This document shows positions 34,438 to 60,311 of a DNA stretch of 64,000 bases, piece after piece; within the stretch, counting starts at the first letter, position 1, and every line of letters begins with the position of its first letter. The notes below the pieces were generated by a model, which saw nothing but the letters and a program-made list of their open reading frames with translations, was not told the origin of the DNA and ran no database searches. Source of the DNA: Clostridia bacterium (GTDB lineage: Bacteria > Bacillota > Clostridia > Peptostreptococcales > Anaerovoracaceae). Location of the stretch: the NCBI GenBank assembly GCA_900766045.1, contig CAAFTW010000046.1:23764-87763 (forward strand). Reading direction: 5' to 3'. The translations under genes were made by a program, and so were the position numbers.

Positions 34438-34821
34438 ATGTCATGTGAAGCATGTGAAAAGATGCCGGATGAAAAGAATCCGCAAAAGCACGCGGACGCC
34501 ACCGTTCACGCAGATGGATCGGTGACGGTCGATGACGGATGCTGCAAGATGAAAAAGCGTTCGCCTAAGGAGTACCGGGACCTGATCAACCGGCTGAGCC
34601 GCATTGAAGGACAGATCCGGGGAATCCGGAGGATGATTGAGGAAGATGCCTACTGCCCGGATGTGCTGAGACAGTCCTCGGCCGCGGCAGCAGCATTGAA
34701 CAGTTTCAATAAGGTGCTTCTGGCTAGTCATATTAAAACCTGTGTCGCTGATGACATCAGAAATGGCAGAGATGAATCCATCGACGAACTGGTGAATATG
34801 CTGCAGAAAATGATGAAGTAG
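34438..34821 (+). CDS. csoR: CsoR-family copper-sensing repressor with a Cys/His-containing N-terminal extension
   Basis: CsoR core (LINRLSRIEGQIRGIRRMIEEDAYCPDVLRQ...H..C) preceded by MSCEACEKMPDEKNPQKHADATVHADGSVTVDDGCC. Confidence 0.8.
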   Translation: MSCEACEKMPDEKNPQKHADATVHADGSVTVDDGCCKMKKRSPKEYRDLINRLSRIEGQIRGIRRMIEEDAYCPDVLRQSSAAAAALNSFNKVLLASHIKTCVADDIRNGRDESIDELVNMLQKMMK

Positions 34822-34843
34822 CCTGAGAAAAGGGGGATTCAAA

Positions 34844-35218
34844 ATGAATTTCGGAGTTATCGTTGTTATAGCCGTTATTGCCTTGATTCTTGTTTTTGCC
34901 ATCAGAAAGTCCATTAAAACCGTCAAAGGCGGATGCTGCGGAGGCGGCGGAGGAGATCTGAAGCCGCTGAAGAAGGAACTGGACGGCAAGGTCGTTTCTG
35001 AGAAGGTCATGCACATTGACGGCATGCACTGCAAGAACTGCCAGTACCGTGTGCAGAGAGCGCTGGACCGGATTGACGGTGTATCTTCCGATGTCAGCTT
35101 TAAGAAGAACCAGGCAGTTGTGAAGATGGATCGTGAGGTTTCCGATGAGCGCCTGTCTTCTGCAGTAACGAACACGGGATATGAGGTTTCCGGAATTGAA
35201 ACGGTGCCGGTAGCATAA
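34844..35218 (+). CDS. copZ: Membrane-anchored heavy-metal-associated (CopZ-like) copper chaperone
   Basis: N-terminal transmembrane helix, then the GGCCGGGGG segment, then an HMA fold with GMHCKNC metal-binding site. Confidence 0.7.
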   Translation: MNFGVIVVIAVIALILVFAIRKSIKTVKGGCCGGGGGDLKPLKKELDGKVVSEKVMHIDGMHCKNCQYRVQRALDRIDGVSSDVSFKKNQAVVKMDREVSDERLSSAVTNTGYEVSGIETVPVA

Positions 35219-39698: not shown

Positions 39699-40715
39699 CT
39701 AAGCGGACGGTGTCTCGCTCTCTGTTTCCTTGCGCGTTTTCTTTTTGTCCTCTCGGAAAAAGGCAATCGCAGTGCCCATCAGGATGGCAATTCCGCAGAA
39801 TACTTGCAGAGCGAAGGTCGGAAGCTGACTGTCTGGGATGATCATGGCAAGAATGCCCATGGCGGCTGCCGGCGGGATCCAGAGACTGCTTTGTTTGATG
39901 GTCAGGAAGCTGCAGACAATGACGCAGATTACACAAAGCGTCAGTGGAAGATGCAGCGTGTTGATGATCAGAAAGCGGAAAAAGGCGCCGTATGCCGCAC
40001 AGGCGGTAACCAGCAGTGAAACAGCCAGCGGGCGTTTCCGTGCCGGACTTTTCGGATTGGTGAATTCTGTAAAGGCAACCAGAACCGGAGGAGCTGCCAT
40101 GAACAGGAGTTTTGCGTTGATGGCGATCCAGGCAAACAGCATGACGGTGACGATGCGCTTTCCGGCACTGACCAGGTCATTTCTGCCCGGAGCAGGAACC
40201 GGTGTGAAGACGGCAGGAATACGTTTCCCGGTCCTGACCAGGATTTCATGCAGGATGATGACGCCCAGGGTCAGGGAAGACGCAGAAATCGGGTAGACGA
40301 TGCTGTGTGTCTGCAGGATGACCGGCAGGACTGCTGCACTGATGATCGGTGCCATGGTCGTTCCGCCGAAAAGGTAGAAGATCTGGCTGACAAGGAAGGC
40401 AAGGATGATCTGATACCAGAGCGGAAGCGGCACATAGAGGACAATCAGAAGTCCGGACCAGGCGCAGCAGCTGATCAGGATGAACATGCGCAGAGAGCTG
40501 ACTCTCCATGGCTGACGCGGTGAAACCAGATACCCCAGTGCCATAGCCGCAATTTCCGGGAAGATGACTTCTTTATCATGCATGCCTTCAGAGACGGCTG
40601 CCATGGCGAGCAGGATTGCGGCGGCGAAGATCAGAGAAACCGCGTTCAGTTTATTTCCTTTGCCAGTGCTGTTTTCCGTGCTGATGCGCGTGATTGCTTT
40701 CGTAATTTTCAACAT
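39699..40715 (-). CDS. Polytopic integral membrane protein, family uncertain
   Basis: 338-aa ORF that is hydrophobic throughout, with about 9-10 predicted helices. Weak ribosome-binding site. I recognise no diagnostic motif. Confidence 0.5.
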   Translation of the reverse strand: MLKITKAITRISTENSTGKGNKLNAVSLIFAAAILLAMAAVSEGMHDKEVIFPEIAAMALGYLVSPRQPWRVSSLRMFILISCCAWSGLLIVLYVPLPLWYQIILAFLVSQIFYLFGGTTMAPIISAAVLPVILQTHSIVYPISASSLTLGVIILHEILVRTGKRIPAVFTPVPAPGRNDLVSAGKRIVTVMLFAWIAINAKLLFMAAPPVLVAFTEFTNPKSPARKRPLAVSLLVTACAAYGAFFRFLIINTLHLPLTLCVICVIVCSFLTIKQSSLWIPPAAAMGILAMIIPDSQLPTFALQVFCGIAILMGTAIAFFREDKKKTRKETESETPSA

Positions 40716-46470: not shown

Positions 46471-46995
46471 ATGAATCAGAATATAGATTTTCAGAAACTG
46501 CGTGAGGATGCAGTTCATATTTTCCATAATGGTTTTGCCTGTTCAGAATCGGTGATTTACGCGATTCAGCAGGATCTGGATCCGGAAATCCCGGATGAAT
46601 TGATTGCGGCAAGCAGCGGCTTTCCCTGGGGCATGGGCGGGGCAGGATGTTCCTGCGGCGCTCTGGCAGGAGGCGTCATGCTGATCGGCCATTATTTCGG
46701 AAGAAAAGAGCCAAAGGGAGCCGAGTACGCGAACTGCCAGAGGCTGACCAGGGAGTATCACGATGCCTTCTGCAGCTGCGCCGGACACGCCTGCTGCGGC
46801 GCGATTATCTCCGGCATGGAGAAAAACTCTGATGAAAGAAAAAATAAATGCACGGGAATCGTCGAGTACGCCGTTACGAAAACCGCGCAGATTATTCTGA
46901 GGGAGAAGGGTCTTCTGACGGAAGAGAAGAATCAGGAACTTCAGCGGTGGCTGGATAATAAGGCGGCAGACTGCAGAAAGCGGGAGCAGGCATGA
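46471..46995 (+). CDS. C_GCAxxG_C_C family putative redox-active protein (second paralog in the window)
   Basis: GFACSESVIYAI...GMGGAGCSCGALAGGVMLIGHYFG...CAGHACCGAI. Ribosome-binding site GGAAGGAA. The stop overlaps the start of the next gene (ATGA). Confidence 0.75.
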   Translation: MNQNIDFQKLREDAVHIFHNGFACSESVIYAIQQDLDPEIPDELIAASSGFPWGMGGAGCSCGALAGGVMLIGHYFGRKEPKGAEYANCQRLTREYHDAFCSCAGHACCGAIISGMEKNSDERKNKCTGIVEYAVTKTAQIILREKGLLTEEKNQELQRWLDNKAADCRKREQA

Positions 46996-49718
46996 AGCGC
47001 ATCGTAACAGGAATACTGGCTCACGTCGATGCCGGGAAAACCACCCTGTCTGAAGCCATGCTGTATAAGACCGGAGAAATCAGCAGCCCGGGAAGAGTCG
47101 ACCACGGCACCAGCTTTTTAGACACAGGAAAGCTGGAAAGAAGCCGTGGAATTACGATTTTCTCTAAACAGGCCCAGCTGAGCTGGGACGATGTGCAGAT
47201 GACCATTCTGGATACTCCTGGACACGTGGATTTTGTCTCGGAGACGGAGAGAACCCTGTCCGTCCTGGATTACGCGATTCTTCTGATCAGCGCGGGCTCC
47301 GGCATCCAGAGCCACACGGAAACCCTGTGGAAGCTGCTGAAGAGAAGCAGGATTCCTACATTTATTTTTATGAATAAAATGGACCTGTCCATTCACAAGA
47401 AATCTGAGTGGATCGATATCCTGCAGGAGAAGTTCGGAAATAGATTTACGGACTTTTCTGTAACAGGCGGAGAGCGCTTCATTGACAGTCTGACTATGGG
47501 ATCGGAAGCGCTGATGGAAAAAGTACTGGATGACCAGAAAATTACTGATCTGGACATTGCCCTTGCAGTAAAAAGAAGGGAAGTATTTCCGGTGTTTTTC
47601 GGGTCGGCGCTGAAGACGGAAGGCATTTCCGAATTCCTTAAGGGCCTTGCCAGGTTTACTTTGTCAGAAGAGAAAAAAGAAAAGTTCGGCGCCAGGGTCT
47701 ATAAGATCGCCAGGGATGAGGATGACCGCCGCCTGACCTTTATGAAGATCACCGGGGGCAGCCTCCGGGTGAAGGATAAGATTGAAGGAAAAACGGACGA
47801 TGGGGAATCCTGGGAGGAGAAGGTCAACCAGATCCGCCTCTATTCCGGCCAGCAGTTTAACGCGGTTCAGGAAGCCGGCCAGGGCATGATCGTGGCGGCA
47901 GAAGGGCTTTCGCAGTCTGAGGCGGGTGACGGCTACGGCTTCGAGAAAAACTCGCATCCGGAGATTCTGGAGCCCTTTCTGACCTATACGGTAATTTCAG
48001 AGGATGGAACGGATTACCATACCCTGCTTCAGGAGGTCAGGGAGCTTGCGGAGGAGGATCCGAAGCTTCATGTCGGCTGGAAGGCTGCGGCGCAGGAAAT
48101 TCACATTCAGATGATGGGGCAGGTGCAGCTTGAAGTTCTGGCCCAGACCATGCTGGACCGTTTCGGGAGAAAAGTGTCTTTCGGATCCGGGAAGATTCTG
48201 TATAAGGAGACGATTGCATCGTCGGTGGAAGGCGTCGGCCACTTCGAACCGCTTCGACATTACGCCGAGGTGCATCTTCTGATCGAGCCTCAGGAGCGGG
48301 GAAGCGGGATATCCTATCAGTCTGTTGCGCCGGTGGACCAGCTGAACCGGAACTGGCAGAGTCAGATCATGACGGCCCTTCAGGAGTATTCCCACACGGG
48401 TGTACTGACCGGATCGCTTCTGACGGATGTGAAAATCACCCTGGTCAGCGGAAAGGCCAGCAAGAAACATACGGAAGGCGGAGATTTCCGTCAGGCTGCG
48501 CGGAGAGCCGTGAGAAACGGACTGATGAAGGCGGAGAACATTTTGCTGGAGCCCTGGTTTTCCTTTACGATCGAGCTTCCGACAGAAAACGTCGGGCGCG
48601 CCATGACGGACATGCAGAAGATCAGCGGGACATTCCAGCCGCCGGAAACGGGCGAGGACCATTCCCTTCTGAAGGGCCGGGGGCCTGCGTCCGGCCTGAT
48701 GCATTATCAGGAGGAGCTGACGCGGTATACGAGAGGAAATGGAAGAATTTACCTGCAGCTGGACGGCTACGATGCTTGCCACAACACAGAGGAAGTGCTG
48801 GAAGAAATCGGCTACGATCCTCTGCGCGACGTGGATAATCCGGCCGATTCCGTCTTCTGTATGCATGGGGAGAGCAATATCATCCCATGGGATCAGGTGG
48901 AGGAGTATATGCATCTTCCGAGCATTCTAGAGCAGGACGAAGAGGAAGATGATGTACTGGCCGCCGCGAGGGTGCACGAGTATGAACACCGGATCGCCGA
49001 CGATAAGGAGCTCATGGCGATTTTTGAGAAGACTTACGGGCAGATCGGCGGGGATAAAACTTCCGGAAATAACGTGCGGATGAATGCCGCAGGTTCCGGC
49101 ATTTCCGGCGTCCGGATGATTAACGCCGACGGAACGGTAGACTATGGGTATTCGACAAAAAGTTCCCGGCAAGAGGCCGTACCGGAAAGCGCGGCCGCAC
49201 GGGATCTTGATGCAGAGCAGAAAGCCCAGCAGAAGCATTCCCATCTGGCAGCCAGAAAAAAAGAAATGGAAAATCGCGCCCAGGAATACCTGATTGTGGA
49301 TGGCTACAACGTTCTGCATAACTGGGATAATCTGGAGGAACTCTGCAGGATGGACTACGGAGCAGCCCGGCAGCAGCTTCTGGAAACCCTCTGCAATTAC
49401 CAGGGCTTCATGCGCTGTAAGATTGCGGTGATTTTCGATGCCTATAAAGTAAAGGGCGGGGGTTCCGCCAGCAGCGGAAAGTTCCATGACATTGAAGTCA
49501 TCTACACGAACGAGGATCAGATCGCCGATTCCTATATCGAGCGTATGACAAAGGAATTATCCGGGAAATACCAGGTCCGTGTGGTGACGAGCGACAGCCA
49601 GGTGCAGCAGATTTCCCTGGGACACGGTGCCCTGAGGACATCATCCAGAGAATTTGAGGCAGAAGTCCGCTCCGTGGAAGATGCCATCCGCCGCGTGATC
49701 AGCAGGGAATCGAGTTGA
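46992..49718 (+). CDS. TetM/TetO-type (EF-G-like) translational GTPase fused to a C-terminal Rae1/YacP-like NYN ribonuclease domain
   Basis: Residues 1 to about 650 are collinear with ribosomal-protection GTPases (ILAHVDAGKTTL, DTPGH, NKMD, domains II-V). After a linker of about 100 aa, residues about 750-908 match YacP/Rae1 (LIVDGYNVLHNW...IAVIFDAYKVKGG...IEVIYTNEDQIADSYIE...VRVVTSDSQVQQISLGHGALRTSSREF). It is a single uninterrupted 908-codon ORF. Confidence 0.8.
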   Translation: MKRIVTGILAHVDAGKTTLSEAMLYKTGEISSPGRVDHGTSFLDTGKLERSRGITIFSKQAQLSWDDVQMTILDTPGHVDFVSETERTLSVLDYAILLISAGSGIQSHTETLWKLLKRSRIPTFIFMNKMDLSIHKKSEWIDILQEKFGNRFTDFSVTGGERFIDSLTMGSEALMEKVLDDQKITDLDIALAVKRREVFPVFFGSALKTEGISEFLKGLARFTLSEEKKEKFGARVYKIARDEDDRRLTFMKITGGSLRVKDKIEGKTDDGESWEEKVNQIRLYSGQQFNAVQEAGQGMIVAAEGLSQSEAGDGYGFEKNSHPEILEPFLTYTVISEDGTDYHTLLQEVRELAEEDPKLHVGWKAAAQEIHIQMMGQVQLEVLAQTMLDRFGRKVSFGSGKILYKETIASSVEGVGHFEPLRHYAEVHLLIEPQERGSGISYQSVAPVDQLNRNWQSQIMTALQEYSHTGVLTGSLLTDVKITLVSGKASKKHTEGGDFRQAARRAVRNGLMKAENILLEPWFSFTIELPTENVGRAMTDMQKISGTFQPPETGEDHSLLKGRGPASGLMHYQEELTRYTRGNGRIYLQLDGYDACHNTEEVLEEIGYDPLRDVDNPADSVFCMHGESNIIPWDQVEEYMHLPSILEQDEEEDDVLAAARVHEYEHRIADDKELMAIFEKTYGQIGGDKTSGNNVRMNAAGSGISGVRMINADGTVDYGYSTKSSRQEAVPESAAARDLDAEQKAQQKHSHLAARKKEMENRAQEYLIVDGYNVLHNWDNLEELCRMDYGAARQQLLETLCNYQGFMRCKIAVIFDAYKVKGGGSASSGKFHDIEVIYTNEDQIADSYIERMTKELSGKYQVRVVTSDSQVQQISLGHGALRTSSREFEAEVRSVEDAIRRVISRESS

Positions 49719-55267: not shown

Positions 55268-56335
55268 ATGAGCAGCAGAAAACAGGTTATGGTGCGCAAT
55301 GTCCCGCTTGGAGGCGGCGCACCGGTGGTTATACAGTCCATGTGCAATGTGGATTCCAGAGATGAAGAGGGAATCCTGAAACAGATCAGAGAGCTTCAGG
55401 AGGCGGGATGTCAGATTGTCCGTCTGGCCGTCCCGAACCAGGAGGCCCTGCAGGTCTTCTCCCGCGTCCGGCCGAAAACGGACATGCCTCTTGTTGCCGA
55501 CATTCATTTTGACTGGAGAATGGCGGTTGGAGCAATTGAGGCCGGAGCAGATAAGATCCGCATCAACCCGGGAAACATCGGTTCCCGGGAGAATGTACAG
55601 CGGATTGTGGATGCCGCAAAAGAGCATCGGGTTCCGATCCGCGTCGGCGTAAACTCAGGATCCGTGGAAAAGGATCTGCTGCAGAAATACGGCCACGTGA
55701 CGGCAGAAGCCCTTGCGGAGAGTGCCGTAAAGAACGTCCGCATGATCGAGGACATGGGTTATGATGATCTGGTTGTTTCCATTAAATCCAGCGATGTGCA
55801 GATGAATTTTGATGCGCATAAGATTGCGGCGAAGAAGATCGATCATCCCTTCCATATCGGCATCACAGAAGCCGGAACGGTCAAAATGGGAAAGATCAAG
55901 AGTGCAGCCGGGATTGGCGCCCTGCTTCTGTCCGGAATCGGAGACACACTCCGTGTCTCCCTGACTGCTGACCCGGTAGAAGAGGTTCTTTTTGCCAGAA
56001 ATCTGCTGGAAAGCATCGGCCTGAGAAAACCGAAGTTCGAGCTGGTGAGCTGCCCGACCTGCGGCAGGACCAGAATTCCGCTGCAGAAACTTGCAGAGTC
56101 GGTGGAAAAACGCCTGACGGAAGAGAAAGACCTTCCGGAAGGACTGAAAATCGCAGTGATGGGATGTGTGGTCAACGGGCCGGGAGAGGCGGCAGAAGCG
56201 GATTACGGCATCTGCGGAGGTGACGGAAAAGGCATTATCTTCGCTAAAGGAAAAGTACTGAAAACCGTGAAAGAAGACGAACTTGAGGACGGTCTGATCG
56301 CGGCGATTCGTGAAGGAGCGGGAAAGATTGAATAA
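55268..56335 (+). CDS. ispG: 4-hydroxy-3-methylbut-2-enyl diphosphate synthase
   Basis: GcpE TIM-barrel N-terminal half. C-terminal CPTCGR...GCVVNGPGE 4Fe-4S motif. Confidence 0.92.
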   Translation: MSSRKQVMVRNVPLGGGAPVVIQSMCNVDSRDEEGILKQIRELQEAGCQIVRLAVPNQEALQVFSRVRPKTDMPLVADIHFDWRMAVGAIEAGADKIRINPGNIGSRENVQRIVDAAKEHRVPIRVGVNSGSVEKDLLQKYGHVTAEALAESAVKNVRMIEDMGYDDLVVSIKSSDVQMNFDAHKIAAKKIDHPFHIGITEAGTVKMGKIKSAAGIGALLLSGIGDTLRVSLTADPVEEVLFARNLLESIGLRKPKFELVSCPTCGRTRIPLQKLAESVEKRLTEEKDLPEGLKIAVMGCVVNGPGEAAEADYGICGGDGKGIIFAKGKVLKTVKEDELEDGLIAAIREGAGKIE

Positions 56336-59300
56336 ACTGATTCAGGATTTTGTCAGCTGGAACAGATTACCGGAAGAGAAGAAAGAACAGATGGAGTGCG
56401 TCATTGAGGACGCGCAGATCAGAAAAGAAACAGGCGTACTGTCGATGGACATGCGCCTGAATTTTATCGTGCCTGCAGAAGATGACCGGAAGCTGAAAGA
56501 GGCAGTGGTACGCCAGCTGCAGGGACTTTCGGGTGTAGAGCTCCACTATCACTATGACCGGGACCAGATGGTGCTTTCTGAAGAGGAAATTCTGGAGCTT
56601 TATCTGCCGCGCCTGATCAGAGAGTCCGGATCCATCGGAAAAGTCGCCTTTGATCCGTCCAGAGTGAAGATTGAGGGACGTACAGCCGTTCTCGGATCTT
56701 TCGGACGGATGGCGACGGAGAAGATGAATGAAGAGCTTTCCTCTGAACTTGCTCAGAAAGTAAGAGAGACTTTCGGATTTACCTGCAGCGTTCGTTTTGA
56801 GAATGATGAAGAGCGTTATAAAGAGGTAGGTGAAAAAAGAAAGCGGGAGCTTTCACAGGATGAGATATTTTCTTCTCCGGGTTCTGATCCGTATTATGAT
56901 GCGGCAGCAGATACCGGATTTGACGCTTACGACCAGAGCATGAGAGATGCCCAGGGAACGGACGCAGACCAGCTTCTGGCGGCTTACGGAGGAGGCATGT
57001 CTTCTACCGATGCAGGCGCAGGAGAAATTCCGCCCTGGGAAGATGGTTCGCAGGCGCAGCCTGCTGCAGCGGCACCGTCCGGCCTGTCCCGGTCCAGAAA
57101 AGAAGGATCCGGCACCGGCCATGCCAGAAAAGCACGCCCGTCTGCAGGCCGTTCCTCAGGCGGCATGAAAAGAGGCACCGAAGTTGTATTGGGACGGGGA
57201 ATCCATGGAGAATCCACACCGCTGATGCAGCTGACACCGGAGAGCGGCAAAGTCGTTATCGAAGGAATTGTTTTCCATAAGGAGAACAGGCCGATCAAAA
57301 ACAACAAGCAGATTGTCACCCTGCTCATTACCGATAAAAAGTCATCCACTTGCGTTAAAGCCTTTGTCAAAAATGAAAAGTGGGATGACATCGACAAGCG
57401 GATCAATGAAGGCGACTACATCATCTGCCAGGGAGAAACGGAATGGAGTAAGTACGACAACGCGCTGAATGTCATCGTCCGCGATATTTCTAAGGGAGAG
57501 GGAATCCCGGAAAGAAAGGATAGCTGGGAGCATGGCCGCCGCGTGGAGCTTCACTGCCATACCAAGATGAGCGCCATGGACGCTCTGAATGACCCGGAAC
57601 GCATCGTGCAGCTGGCTTCCGACTGGGGCCAGCCGGCCGTTGCCATTACTGACCACGGCGTCGTCCAGTCCTTCCCGGATGCAGCGGCCATCGCCGGAAA
57701 GCTGGCAAAAAAAGGAAAGCCGATCAAGGTCATTTACGGCATGGAGGGCTATCTCTATGACGATGAAGGCTGCATCGACGCTGACGGAAATATCGATTAT
57801 AAGAAGAAAAAGGGAACGAACCACATCATCTTGCTCTGCCGCACCCAGCACGGCCTGAGGAACCTGTATAAGCTCGTTTCCATCTCTCATGTAAAATACT
57901 TCTACAAGAAGCCGAGAATCCCGAGAACCGTTCTGGATAAATACAGGGACGGTCTGATTGTCGGCTCCGCCTGCGAAGCGGGAGAAGTCTATCGTGCGCT
58001 GGAACAGGGAAAGTCCGATGAAGAGGTCGCGGAAATCGCGAAATACTACGATTATCTGGAAATCCAGCCCCTGATCAATAACCGCTTTATGCTGGACTCT
58101 GATAAATTCCCGGACGTCAACAGCTGGGACGACCTGAAAGAGTATAATAAGAGGATCGTCCATATCGCAGATATGCTGGACAAGCCGGTCTGCGCGACGA
58201 CAGATGCCCACTACGACGAGCCGGATTCTGCCATCTACAGAAACATCCTGCTCTACGGCATGGGATTTAAGGACGCGGAAAACGGCCAGGGCCTGTATTT
58301 AAGAACTACGGACGAGATGATTAAGGAATTCTCCTACCTGGGAGAAGACATGGCCCAGAAAGTTGTCGTCGATAACACCAATAAGATTGCAGACTGGGTT
58401 GAAGAAGGGATCAAGCCGGTTCCGGATGAGAAATGTCCGCCGAAAATCGACGGCGCGGAAGAAGAACTGTATAATAAGTGTTTCGAGAGAGCCCACCGGA
58501 TTTACGGTGATCCGCTTCCGGAAAAGATCCAGAAGCGCCTGGATACAGAGCTGAACGCGATCATCAGCAACGGTTACGCGGTCATGTACGTTTCTGCAGA
58601 ACGTCTGGTAAACAAGTCCCTGCAGGATGGCTATCTGGTCGGATCCAGAGGATCCGTCGGTTCGTCCTTTGCAGCTACCATGGCGGGAATCACCGAGGTC
58701 AATCCCCTTGACCCGCATTATATTTGTCCTAACTGCAAGCACCTGGAGTGGGGCGACATGACCAAGTACGATAATGGTCTGGATATGCCGCCGAAGAAGT
58801 GCCCGGAGTGCGGCGCGGAGATGAAGCGTGACGGTTTCACGATTCCGTTCGCGACTTTCCTGGGATTTAAGGGAAATAAAGAGCCGGATATTGACTTGAA
58901 TTTCGCGGGCGAGTACCAGGCGAGGGCGCATAAATACGTCGGCGTGATTTTCGGAGAGAAGAATGTATTCAAGGCTGGAACTGTAGGCACCATCGCCGAG
59001 AAGACCGCTTACGGATACGTACGCCGCTTTTTCGAGGAGACCGGGCGTCCGGTCAATAAGTTCGAGATCGACCGTCTGACGGAAGGCTGCACGGGCGTAA
59101 AGCGCACCACGGGCCAGCATCCGGGCGGAATCATCATCGTGCCGAGAGACCACGATATTTTCGAGTTCTGCCCGATCCAGCATCCGGCGAACGACACGAA
59201 GACGGACATTATCACCACGCATTTCGATTACCATAAGATCGATAAGAACCTGCTGAAGCTGGATATTCTGGGACACACTGTCCCGTCCATGATCCGTCAG

Positions 59301-60311
59301 CTGCAGGACATGACCGGAGTGGATCCGCTTCATGTCGACCTGACCGACCAGAAGGTACTGAGCATTTTCAACGGGACAGAGGCTCTGGACATCAAGGACC
59401 CGAACTACCGCTTCCGTCACGGGACCTTTGCGATTCCGGAGTTCGGCACGGGATTCACTCGTCAGATGCTGGACGACGTAAAGCCGAAGCGTTTTGAGGA
59501 CCTGGTCAGAATGTCCGGATTCTCTCACGGAACCGATGTATGGCTGAACAACGCTCAGGAATATATCCGGAACGGCACGGCCACCATGCGTGAAGTCATT
59601 TCCACCCGAGACGATATTATGAACTTCTGCATCGCCCACGGCATTGAGAACGAGACCTCCTTCCGCATCATGGAGGAGACTCGTAAGAAGAACCTGATTC
59701 TGACCGAGGAACATAAGCAGGTCATGCGCGACCACGGCATCCCGCAGTGGTACATCGATTCCTGCTCCAAGATCAAGTACATGTTCCCGCGGGCCCACGC
59801 GGTGGCCTACGTCATGATGTCCTTCCGTATGGCCTGGTATAAGGTGTATTATCCGGTTCCCTTCTACGCGACTTACTTCACCAGCGTGCTGGCCGACTTT
59901 GACGCCGAGACTGCGCTGAAGGGAAAAGAAGCTGTCTTGAGGAAGATGGACGAGATCAATATGAAGGGAAACAATGCCACGGCCAAGGAGAAAGACAGCG
60001 AGACCGTTCTGGAAGTCATTTACGAGATGTTCGCCAGGGGCTATGAGTTCCTTCCGGCGGAGCTGGGTTCCTCCTATGCGGAGCGCTTTTGGGAGAAGGA
60101 CGGCAAGGTTCTGCTTCCCTTCGCGGCCTATGAGGGTGTCGGCGCTGCTGCGGCCAATCAGCTGGTGGATGCCTATAAGGAGAAGCCGTTTGATACCGTG
60201 GAAGACTGCCAGACGAGAGCGCATCTGGGAAAGAGTGTCATAGAAACCCTGCGGAGTCATGGGATTTTTGAGGGACTTCCGGAAACCGATCAGATCTGCT
60301 GGGCAATTTAA
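56328..60311 (+). CDS. polC: PolC-type DNA polymerase III alpha subunit that appears to lack the internal 3'-5' exonuclease domain
   Basis: N-terminal domain, OB fold, PHP (RVELHCHTKMS...ITDHGVVQSFPD), polymerase core (GSRGSVGSS, Zn finger CPNCKH...CPECG, PDIDLNF, HPGGIIIV) and C-terminal tail are all collinear with PolC. Where the DEDDh exonuclease normally sits (between VIYGMEGY and NLYKLVSISHVKYFY) there are only about 25 residues. The likely start is the TTG at 56328 (ribosome-binding site GAAGGAG; gives MNKLIQDF...). The ORF track begins at the GTG at 56310. Confidence 0.85.
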   Translation: MNKLIQDFVSWNRLPEEKKEQMECVIEDAQIRKETGVLSMDMRLNFIVPAEDDRKLKEAVVRQLQGLSGVELHYHYDRDQMVLSEEEILELYLPRLIRESGSIGKVAFDPSRVKIEGRTAVLGSFGRMATEKMNEELSSELAQKVRETFGFTCSVRFENDEERYKEVGEKRKRELSQDEIFSSPGSDPYYDAAADTGFDAYDQSMRDAQGTDADQLLAAYGGGMSSTDAGAGEIPPWEDGSQAQPAAAAPSGLSRSRKEGSGTGHARKARPSAGRSSGGMKRGTEVVLGRGIHGESTPLMQLTPESGKVVIEGIVFHKENRPIKNNKQIVTLLITDKKSSTCVKAFVKNEKWDDIDKRINEGDYIICQGETEWSKYDNALNVIVRDISKGEGIPERKDSWEHGRRVELHCHTKMSAMDALNDPERIVQLASDWGQPAVAITDHGVVQSFPDAAAIAGKLAKKGKPIKVIYGMEGYLYDDEGCIDADGNIDYKKKKGTNHIILLCRTQHGLRNLYKLVSISHVKYFYKKPRIPRTVLDKYRDGLIVGSACEAGEVYRALEQGKSDEEVAEIAKYYDYLEIQPLINNRFMLDSDKFPDVNSWDDLKEYNKRIVHIADMLDKPVCATTDAHYDEPDSAIYRNILLYGMGFKDAENGQGLYLRTTDEMIKEFSYLGEDMAQKVVVDNTNKIADWVEEGIKPVPDEKCPPKIDGAEEELYNKCFERAHRIYGDPLPEKIQKRLDTELNAIISNGYAVMYVSAERLVNKSLQDGYLVGSRGSVGSSFAATMAGITEVNPLDPHYICPNCKHLEWGDMTKYDNGLDMPPKKCPECGAEMKRDGFTIPFATFLGFKGNKEPDIDLNFAGEYQARAHKYVGVIFGEKNVFKAGTVGTIAEKTAYGYVRRFFEETGRPVNKFEIDRLTEGCTGVKRTTGQHPGGIIIVPRDHDIFEFCPIQHPANDTKTDIITTHFDYHKIDKNLLKLDILGHTVPSMIRQLQDMTGVDPLHVDLTDQKVLSIFNGTEALDIKDPNYRFRHGTFAIPEFGTGFTRQMLDDVKPKRFEDLVRMSGFSHGTDVWLNNAQEYIRNGTATMREVISTRDDIMNFCIAHGIENETSFRIMEETRKKNLILTEEHKQVMRDHGIPQWYIDSCSKIKYMFPRAHAVAYVMMSFRMAWYKVYYPVPFYATYFTSVLADFDAETALKGKEAVLRKMDEINMKGNNATAKEKDSETVLEVIYEMFARGYEFLPAELGSSYAERFWEKDGKVLLPFAAYEGVGAAAANQLVDAYKEKPFDTVEDCQTRAHLGKSVIETLRSHGIFEGLPETDQICWAI

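Follow-up and report, generated by a model that had tools for sequence, protein, structure and literature searches.

A naturally exonuclease-less PolC of Anaerovoracaceae with a complete PHP metal site that may proofread in cis

Does a PolC-type replicase that lacks its DEDDh exonuclease also lack proofreading? Canonical PolCs, e.g. those of Bacillus subtilis, Geobacillus kaustophilus (3F2B) and Enterococcus faecium (9QPC), carry a 211-residue DEDDh exonuclease between strands 3 and 4 of the PHP domain. In a 64,000-nucleotide stretch of DNA from a Clostridia bacterium (the window, in what follows), a sequence-only reading had noticed a polC gene without this insertion and took the product to be a proofreading-deficient polymerase, requiring a separate proofreader in trans or implying an elevated mutation rate. 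We examined whether the absence is genuine, whether it is new, and what it implies for proofreading.

The polC open reading frame encodes 1327 aa with zero internal stops and starts with a TTG codon 9 nt 3' of an AAGGAG ribosome-binding site. Its product scored far above the cut-offs of both NCBIfam PolC equivalogs, with 1410.7 bits for PRK00448 (cut-off 873) and 1306.6 bits for TIGR01405 (cut-off 1043.45). The gene order obtained with Pfam, pyrH-frr-uppS-cdsA-dxr-rseP-ispG-polC-nrdD, agrees with the canonical dxr-rseP-ispG-polC context proposed initially, and no DnaE was found anywhere in the 64-kb window. The N-terminal domain, OB domain, PHP domain, Zn finger, Pol3 core, HhH domain and C-terminal clamp motif are common to this protein and canonical PolCs (Table 1). 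[quoted passage not shown] Among the PolC hallmarks, we found the Pol-beta-like core with its catalytic aspartates, the Zn finger, the (HhH)2 domain and a candidate clamp motif; the columns of the Zn finger and of PDIDLNF are near-invariant in alignment A1. Most PolCs, including the canonical ones, end in QLSLF, whereas the subclade of the query ends in QICWAI or QLTWAL, and QICWAI is presumably a variant of QLSLF, i.e. a putative clamp-binding motif. The hallmark DEDDh insert is missing, yet membership of the PolC family stands because 6% of all PolCs lack Exo (PMC3919608).

Table 1 Features of the polC gene and its product, with positions in the window.
Feature	Position	Strand	Evidence
polC, PolC-type DNA polymerase III alpha subunit, 1327 aa, natural exonuclease-less form	56328..60311	+	translation, NCBIfam, PDB 3f2b E = 0
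Low-complexity Gly/Ala/Ser/Asp-rich insert, aa 182-283, between N-terminal domain and OB domain	56871..57176	+	composition
OB domain, aa 309-387	57252..57488	+	Pfam tRNA_anti-codon 23.7 bits, under cut-off 27; aligned to 3f2b from residue 301
PHP N-terminal half, aa 407-473, ligands H409 H411 D418 H443 E473	57546..57746	+	Pfam PHP, ligand mapping, Mtb DnaE1 alignment
25-residue linker GYLYDDEGCIDADGNIDYKKKKGTN, aa 474-498, at exonuclease site of other PolCs	57747..57821	+	alignments, regexes
PHP C-terminal half, aa 499-700, ligands H499 C549 D626 H628	57822..58427	+	Pfam, ligand mapping, alignment
Polymerase core (palm, thumb, fingers)	58464..59729	+	Pfam DNA_pol3_alpha 2.9e-56, DNA_pol3_finger 2.1e-23
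Zn finger CPNC...CPEC, aa 800-829	58725-58814	+	motif position
Catalytic PDIDLNF motif, aa 853-859	58884-58904	+	motif position
(HhH)2 domain with C-terminal clamp-binding-type motif QICWAI	60045..60308	+	Pfam HHH_6; motif at 60291-60308

The low-complexity insert is unrelated to the exonuclease question. It evolves fast, with dN of ~0.28-0.33 against two related loci (L003 and L004) compared with 0.03-0.05 for the core, and its variability is also reflected in a relative (P0012) aligned over only 78% of the query.

Several comparisons show that the exonuclease site is empty. RNase_T/DEDDh (PF00929) is absent from the Pfam matches on the 1327-aa protein, in which PHP is a single contiguous match (aa 407-577 on profile positions 1-159 of 164), and exactly 25 residues separate the PHP ligands E473 and H499. 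The PolC equivalog match is split in two parts, the second one pairing model positions 606-1441 with aa 488-1323 of the query. Alignment with full-length E. faecium PolC (9qpc) likewise gives two blocks, in which aa ~478 pairs with residue ~429 and aa 486 with residue 628, leaving ~200 E. faecium residues, including the catalytic D431/E433 (PMC12592400), without counterpart. The G. kaustophilus construct 3f2b, engineered without its exonuclease for crystallization, aligns end to end, and the query is a natural equivalent of this engineered protein. Neither the PolC protein nor the two alternative frames of 57600-58000 contained a match to regexes for the Exo I-III motifs. A search of all 561 six-frame segments from the complete 64-kb window with a profile HMM of 89 PolC exonuclease insertions was negative (best E = 1.3, 3.2 bits), as was phmmer on the six-frame window with an approximate E. 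coli DnaQ query, a weak probe (best 3.2 bits). The earlier observations of PHP halves ~25 residues apart, of absent Exo I-III motifs and of a clean in-frame absence in an otherwise complete PolC are thus confirmed.

The AlphaFold model of aa 395-701 (pLDDT 93.7, pTM 0.92) superposes on the exo-deleted G. kaustophilus PolC with a TM of 0.83 and an rmsd of 2.2 Å over 311 columns, and on the E. faecium PolC only with ~190 gap columns. The linker is ordered in this model (pLDDT ~88-94); its length is 24 aa in 105 of the 121 clade members, which share the pattern DD..C...DG.I.YKKK. Altogether, these data show that a short, conserved and structured linker replaces the DEDDh domain, the rest of PolC being intact.

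Assembly or annotation could in principle have produced this situation if ~570-600 bp of exonuclease coding sequence had collapsed, as the sequence-only reading had cautioned, but the probability of such an artefact is negligible. The frame is uninterrupted, the PHP barrel is confidently closed in the AlphaFold model and the linker sequence itself is conserved. Moreover, the closed chromosome of Eubacterium sp. F2 has the same junction, as do several MAGs and isolates of independent origin, with identities as low as 55%, so that collapse at polC is ruled out on comparative grounds. Specifically, a junction of 24-25 aa is common to the complete Eubacterium sp. F2 chromosome (97%), an [Eubacterium] saphenum MAG (91%) and two further loci (L003 and L005). 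None of the 120 closest homologues, 1131-1338 aa long and at 55-99% identity, contains PF00929; they derive from many independent assemblies and include the cultured isolate Aminicella lysinilytica. Exo motifs are missing as well in 7 related genome loci, among them those of Eubacterium sp. F2, of the [Eubacterium] saphenum MAG and of the E. nodatum type strain; E. nodatum ATCC 33099 (56%) encodes a 1256-aa protein without Exo I-III motifs, whose junction the regexes did not locate. The nearest named relatives (Eubacterium sp. F2, [Eubacterium] saphenum, E. nodatum and Aminicella) all belong to the Clostridia, Peptostreptococcales, Anaerovoracaceae, and the exo-less form is lineage-wide and typical of Anaerovoracaceae. 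Purifying selection on polC is strong, with a whole-gene dN/dS of 0.02-0.06 and PHP values of 0.012 against L002 and 0.069 against L003 (the ratio was not computable for L004).

The short form is therefore real, but it is not unusual: 120 of the 120 nearest homologues share it, and in 2013/2014 Timinskas, Balvociute, Timinskas and Venclovas had already documented exo-less PolCs from both Clostridia and Negativicutes in NAR (PMC3919608), which makes it known biology. According to these authors, Exo is lacking in 16% of the PolCs found in PolC + DnaE1 systems, and the PHP site is conserved in PolCs at large, which they reported separately from the exo-less forms (PMC3919608). The class is also characterized by a DnaE1, as opposed to a DnaE3, encoded in the same genome. 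Our protein shares with this class all PolC domains minus the DnaQ-type insertion, a clostridial host and a conserved PHP metal site; nothing essential sets it apart, and it is a member of the class, although Anaerovoracaceae are not named in the main text of that paper (PMC3919608). Near-identical proteins also carry a PolC annotation in public databases.

Given that the exonuclease is structurally absent, the capacity for proofreading depends on what remains, and here the sequence-only reading overlooked the exonuclease potential of the PHP domain. In several C-family polymerases, among them Thermus thermophilus Pol III alpha and Mycobacterium tuberculosis (Mtb) DnaE1, the proofreading 3'-5' exonuclease is the PHP domain itself (PMC5636811). 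All nine ligands of the trinuclear PHP metal centre are present in the query and invariant in 121 of 121 members of the exo-less clade. In our alignment, they match H14, H16, D23, H48, E73, H107, C158, D226 and H228 of Mtb DnaE1 one-to-one, and mutation of D23 or D226 abolishes the exonuclease of the latter enzyme (PMC5636811). The resulting signature, HHDHEHCDH, is identical in the query, in Mtb DnaE1 (5LEW/7PU7) and in Thermus Pol III alpha, and the spacer between the E and H ligands is a simple loop in each case (25 residues in the query, 29 in Mtb, 18 in Taq). The Mtb and Thermus enzymes are nevertheless of the DnaE type, with a different domain order and only ~24% PHP identity to the query, and their PHP exonuclease activity is demonstrated, whereas no PolC PHP is known to have such activity and that of the query is a candidate one.

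Two PolCs that rely on the DnaQ insert differ at this site. The position of D626 is occupied by Asn (ATGNVHY) in the PolCs of G. kaustophilus (41% identity to the query in PHP) and E. faecium, whereas the ligand set of the query is complete. The G. kaustophilus PHP, the sole PolC PHP to have been assayed biochemically, was reported to be inactive, and it carries this ligand substitution. In E. coli, PHP has a structural role and has lost five ligands (PMC5636811). C549 corresponds to C670 of G. kaustophilus and to C669 of Clostridium thermocellum PolC, in which C669Y is a ~30-fold mutator (bioRxiv 10.1101/2021.07.30.454558); this mutator is the single indirect pointer to exonuclease activity of a PolC PHP, and its effect could result from structural destabilization instead of lost PHP catalysis.

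We compared the two sites across 131 PolC sequences with at most 50% mutual identity, sampled from the top 150 matches to the query. Among the 94 with an intact DEDDh insert, the PHP site was canonical in 56 and non-canonical in 38, whereas 36 of the 37 without an active exonuclease (23 with no insert and 14 with a degenerate one) had a canonical PHP site and one did not (Fisher p = 4e-6, shared ancestry being ignored). Because most exo-containing clostridial PolCs (56 of 94) also have an intact metal site, its presence is ancestral, as opposed to having arisen specifically in compensation. The 14 representatives with a decayed insert, in which the DEDDh residues are gone, show that degenerate-insert intermediates exist among PolCs. 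In an NJ tree with long terminal branches and without support values, exo-less representatives, whose linkers measure 11-61 aa, are interspersed with exo-containing ones; on this tree, they are not obviously monophyletic and multiple exonuclease losses appear to have occurred. The conserved linker, the apparent multiple losses and the intermediates add to the class described by Timinskas et al.

On this basis, we consider it fairly probable that the query is a functional, naturally exo-less PolC that keeps proofreading, most likely in cis by its PHP domain; in other words, it is probably not proofreading-deficient. An ancestor would have lost the DnaQ-type domain, as the weakly resolved tree suggests, and the PHP active site would receive the mismatched primer 3' end in place of the DnaQ domain. 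There, the complete nine-residue metal centre would proofread in cis, like the PHP domains of Mtb DnaE1 and Thermus Pol III alpha. Extra proofreading capacity may come from a DnaE1 partner, which the literature leads one to expect in Clostridia. A complete PHP site that aligns with Mtb DnaE1 also means that neither a trans proofreader nor an elevated mutation rate follows of necessity from the missing exonuclease, contrary to the initial interpretation.

Proofreading might still be provided in trans, either by a stand-alone DnaQ-like DEDDh protein (a fission product or epsilon-like) or by the PHP of a partner DnaE1, with the PolC PHP kept for structure, which we regard as unlikely. Editing between replicases has a precedent, since the B. 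subtilis PolC exonuclease can proofread for DnaE3 (PMC12926913), and bacterial proteomes contain a mean of more than 3 DnaQ homologues (PMC12926913). Clostridial DnaE1s combine an intact PHP with a conserved putative epsilon-binding patch (PMC3919608), and the conserved, Lys-rich, structured linker could serve as a docking surface. However, DnaQ-like sequence is present in no frame of the 64-kb window nor in 166 kb around polC in 11 related loci, which excludes a split-off exonuclease gene adjoining polC, and C. thermocellum was reported to have no epsilon subunit. Furthermore, the invariance of the nine ligands (121/121 in the clade; 36/37 among exo-less or degenerate representatives) exceeds what a structural role usually needs, as judged from the five ligands lost by the structural PHP of E. 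coli.

A true lack of proofreading by PolC, tolerated at the price of a higher mutation rate or because PolC is minor (e.g. limited to short patches) and DnaE1 performs the bulk of accurate synthesis, seems to us quite improbable. Timinskas et al. suggested DnaE1 as a possible main replicase in clostridia with PolC + DnaE1 and noted exo-less PolCs only in such clostridia (PMC3919608). In addition, one exo-less representative (P0241) has a degenerate PHP site too (HRSLENSDQ); because it has neither site, PolCs without any recognizable proofreader do exist. Yet a decaying or sidelined enzyme is a poor fit for the query, because the entire gene, like its PHP part, experiences very strong purifying selection (omega 0.01-0.07), the polymerase catalytic motif, Zn finger, HhH domain and clamp-binding-type C-terminus are all kept, the canonical locus is conserved, and so, perfectly, are the PHP ligands.

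The exo-less architecture is already known and carries little weight as a discovery, having been catalogued in 2013/2014 and not contradicted when bacterial polymerases were surveyed in 2026. Its value is that of a natural test case for whether the PHP domain of PolC can proofread: being the natural counterpart of the exo-deleted G. kaustophilus construct, with a complete PHP metal site, this PolC is directly assayable. Exo-less PolCs may be the first PolC-type replicases to proofread solely via a PHP centre, with a switch from DnaQ to PHP perhaps repeated in Clostridia, a broader proposal for which we see the chances as evenly balanced. If true, exo-containing clostridial PolCs would hold two redundant cis proofreaders and their DnaQ insert would be dispensable. 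The answer bears on the division of labour in clostridial PolC + DnaE1 replisomes and on PolC-targeted antibiotics against oral and gut anaerobes.

The sequence-only reading described a complete PolC in the canonical dxr-rseP-ispG-polC context, with a continuous reading frame and without the DEDDh exonuclease insertion, and this description proved correct in every particular. The gene order is pyrH-frr-uppS-cdsA-dxr-rseP-ispG-polC-nrdD, and the polC start codon is a TTG located 9 nt 3' of an AAGGAG ribosome-binding site. The product scored 1410.7 bits with PRK00448 (cut-off 873) and 1306.6 bits with TIGR01405 (cut-off 1043), both NCBI PolC equivalog models; the equivalog match falls into two pieces, with query aa 488-1323 corresponding to model positions 606-1441. 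Pfam gave no match to an RNase_T/DEDDh domain in the 1327-aa protein, none of the Exo I-III motifs was found in it or in the two remaining frames of nt 57600-58000, and a profile HMM built from 89 PolC exonuclease insertions, run against the whole window as 561 six-frame segments, retrieved nothing (best E = 1.3). The query aligned with full-length E. faecium PolC (9QPC) up to ~aa 478 (chain residue ~429) and again from aa 486 (residue 628). The 211-residue exonuclease of E. faecium PolC, with catalytic D431/E433, lies between PHP strands 3 and 4 (PMC12592400), and the 9QPC segment without a query counterpart is the exonuclease carrying these residues. The G. kaustophilus construct 3F2B, whose exonuclease was deleted by the crystallographers, aligned end to end. 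The two PHP halves, estimated to lie about 25 residues apart, are separated between their flanking ligands by exactly 25 residues, GYLYDDEGCIDADGNIDYKKKKGTN.

Features of polC and of other ORFs in the window.
Feature	Window position (nt)	Strand	Residues (aa)	Remarks
polC ORF	56328..60311	+	1327	uninterrupted translation
Low-complexity insert of PolC	56871-57176		182-283	between N-terminal and OB domains
OB domain			309-387	Pfam, weak
PHP domain			407-577	Pfam, one contiguous match, profile positions 1-159 of 164
Linker between PHP ligands	57747-57821		474-498	
DNA_pol3_alpha, finger domain, HHH_6				Pfam
C-terminal QICWAI	60291-60308			clamp-binding-type motif
GTPase-NYN fusion	46992-49718	+	908	
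GTPase part of fusion			4-598	GTP_EFTU, EF-G domains 2, III, IV, EFG_C
NYN domain of fusion			767-906	4.6e-44
Predicted ORF	34441-35175	-	243	no Pfam or NCBIfam match
Predicted ORF	39699-40715	-	337	no Pfam or NCBIfam match

Two further features of this PolC were observed. The Gly/Ala/Ser/Asp-rich insert of ~100 aa is absent from many relatives, which cover only 78% of the query, and has a dN of about 0.3 versus 0.03-0.05 in the core. The usual pentapeptide QLSLF closes most PolCs, many of the exo-less forms among them; the query's subclade has QICWAI and its neighbours QLTWAL or QLSWAF, and QICWAI resembles a hexapeptide-type variant in which Trp fills the key hydrophobic position. Elsewhere in the window, a fusion protein combines an EF-G/Tet(M)-like translational GTPase with a C-terminal YacP/Rae1-type NYN nuclease domain. 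It scored 417.8 bits with NCBIfam tet_protect, under the cut-off of 775, and is kept in Eubacterium sp. F2 (L002 647..3397, 916 aa). Since Rae1 is an RNase that depends on the ribosomal A site, the fusion might carry its nuclease to the ribosome.

In C-family polymerases, exonucleolytic proofreading can reside in the PHP domain, as shown for M. tuberculosis DnaE1 and Thermus Pol III alpha, where nine residues hold a trinuclear metal centre (PMC5636811); the sequence-only reading left this out of account. In the query the nine are H409, H411, D418, H443, E473, H499, C549, D626, and H628, i.e. the canonical HHDHEHCDH, aligning one-to-one with H14, H16, D23, H48, E73, H107, C158, D226, and H228 of M. 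tuberculosis DnaE1, whose exonuclease is abolished by mutation of D23 or D226 (PMC5636811). All nine are invariant in the 121 members of the exo-less clade. In contrast to the query, the DnaQ-insert users G. kaustophilus and E. faecium have Asn at the D626 position (ATGNVHY), and the PHP domain of G. kaustophilus PolC is reportedly inactive (PMC5636811). The canonical DnaQ insertion site corresponds exactly to the loop lining the groove to the PHP active site in M. tuberculosis DnaE1 (PMC5636811), and this loop is simple in both DnaE1 and the query. An AlphaFold model of aa 395-701 (pLDDT 93.7, pTM 0.92), in which the linker is ordered, matched exo-deleted G. kaustophilus PolC (TM 0.83, 2.2 A over 311 columns); its superposition on E. 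faecium PolC required about 190 gap columns. Experimental support comes from C. thermocellum PolC, in which C669 occupies the place of query C549 and the substitution C669Y gives a roughly 30-fold mutator (bioRxiv 10.1101/2021.07.30.454558), an effect that could also stem from a destabilised structure. Proofreading is thus probably performed in cis, by the PHP trinuclear metal centre of the query PolC itself.

An exhaustive HMMER search of 50%-identity cluster representatives with query aa 300-1327 gave 15,614 matches, the best 150 of which are a mixture of short and long PolCs; we analyzed 130 full-length representatives along with the query. The PHP site is canonical in 56 and non-canonical in 38 of the 94 PolCs with an intact DEDDh insert, canonical in 22 of the 23 without insert (linker 11-61 aa), and canonical in all 14 whose 140-413-aa insert has lost or unrecognisable DEDDh residues. 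Pooling the two classes without active exonuclease gives 36 canonical versus 1 non-canonical (Fisher p = 4e-6, ignoring phylogeny). These PolCs, a sample biased towards the query since it was taken from the best 150, thus appear almost always to keep at least one candidate proofreader. The sole exception, P0241 (1178 aa, 11-aa linker, PHP-site residues HRSLENSDQ), is perhaps a supernumerary copy or one carried by a mobile element. In a rough, weakly resolved NJ tree, the exo-less representatives fall at scattered places among the exo-containing PolCs and have linkers of unequal length, a pattern that suggests several independent losses. Twelve representatives (P0134, P0144, P0157, P0162, P0166, P0177, P0187, P0188, P0204, P0206, P0207, and P0223) have a 140-290-aa insertion at the exonuclease site that has lost the DEDDh residues and matches the exonuclease HMM barely or not at all; their PHP sites are all perfect, and these proteins possibly represent stages in the decay of the exonuclease.

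The short form is general among close relatives. PF00929 is absent from all of the best 120 homologues (55-99% identity, 1131-1338 aa; 5.8 billion proteins searched), which come from many independent assemblies and include the cultured isolate Aminicella lysinilytica. A 24-25-aa junction is common to four related loci, those of Eubacterium sp. F2 (complete chromosome, 97%), a [Eubacterium] saphenum MAG (91%), L003 (86%), and L005 (64%); the PolC of E. nodatum ATCC 33099 (56%, 1256 aa) has no Exo motifs, and its junction was not located by regexes. The F2, saphenum, nodatum, and Aminicella relatives all belong to Clostridia, Peptostreptococcales, Anaerovoracaceae. The linker is 24 aa long in 105 of 121 clade sequences, with the conserved pattern DD..C...DG.I.YKKK. 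Assembly collapse of an exonuclease-coding stretch is ruled out by the shared junction and the independent assemblies, leaving it a negligible probability. polC is under strong purifying selection (dN/dS 0.02-0.06 overall; PHP 0.012 against L002 and 0.069 against L003, not computable against the related locus L004).

Proofreading in trans, by a stand-alone DnaQ or by DnaE1, is the less improbable of the two remaining alternatives, though still unlikely. No DnaQ-like sequence was found in the window or in the 166 kb flanking polC at 11 related loci, which rules out a split-off exonuclease gene adjoining polC. The sequence-only reading had proposed a proofreading-deficient replicase. Its premise, the missing exonuclease, stands, but deficiency is unlikely since the candidate PHP site is complete with its nine ligands. 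It is unlikely that this PolC does without proofreading or is a sidelined polymerase, which fits poorly with the strong purifying selection and with the preservation of its catalytic, Zn-finger, HhH, and clamp-type motifs.

PolCs without the Exo insertion make up 6% of the family, all in Clostridia and Negativicutes, where PolC is paired with DnaE1, except one extra Thermotogae copy, and PolC PHP metal sites are in general highly conserved (Timinskas et al., NAR 2014, PMC3919608). A 2026 survey from the same laboratory defined an 'active' PHP by the same signature, HHDHEH[C/H]DH, and gave three candidate proofreaders as usual in clostridia (PMC12926913). A protein 99% identical to the query is already in NCBI as PolC-type DNA polymerase III. 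Because exo-less PolCs have been reported in these classes, the query polC is a member of an already described and known class, and its product offers a natural system in which proofreading by the PHP domain of a PolC can be tested directly.
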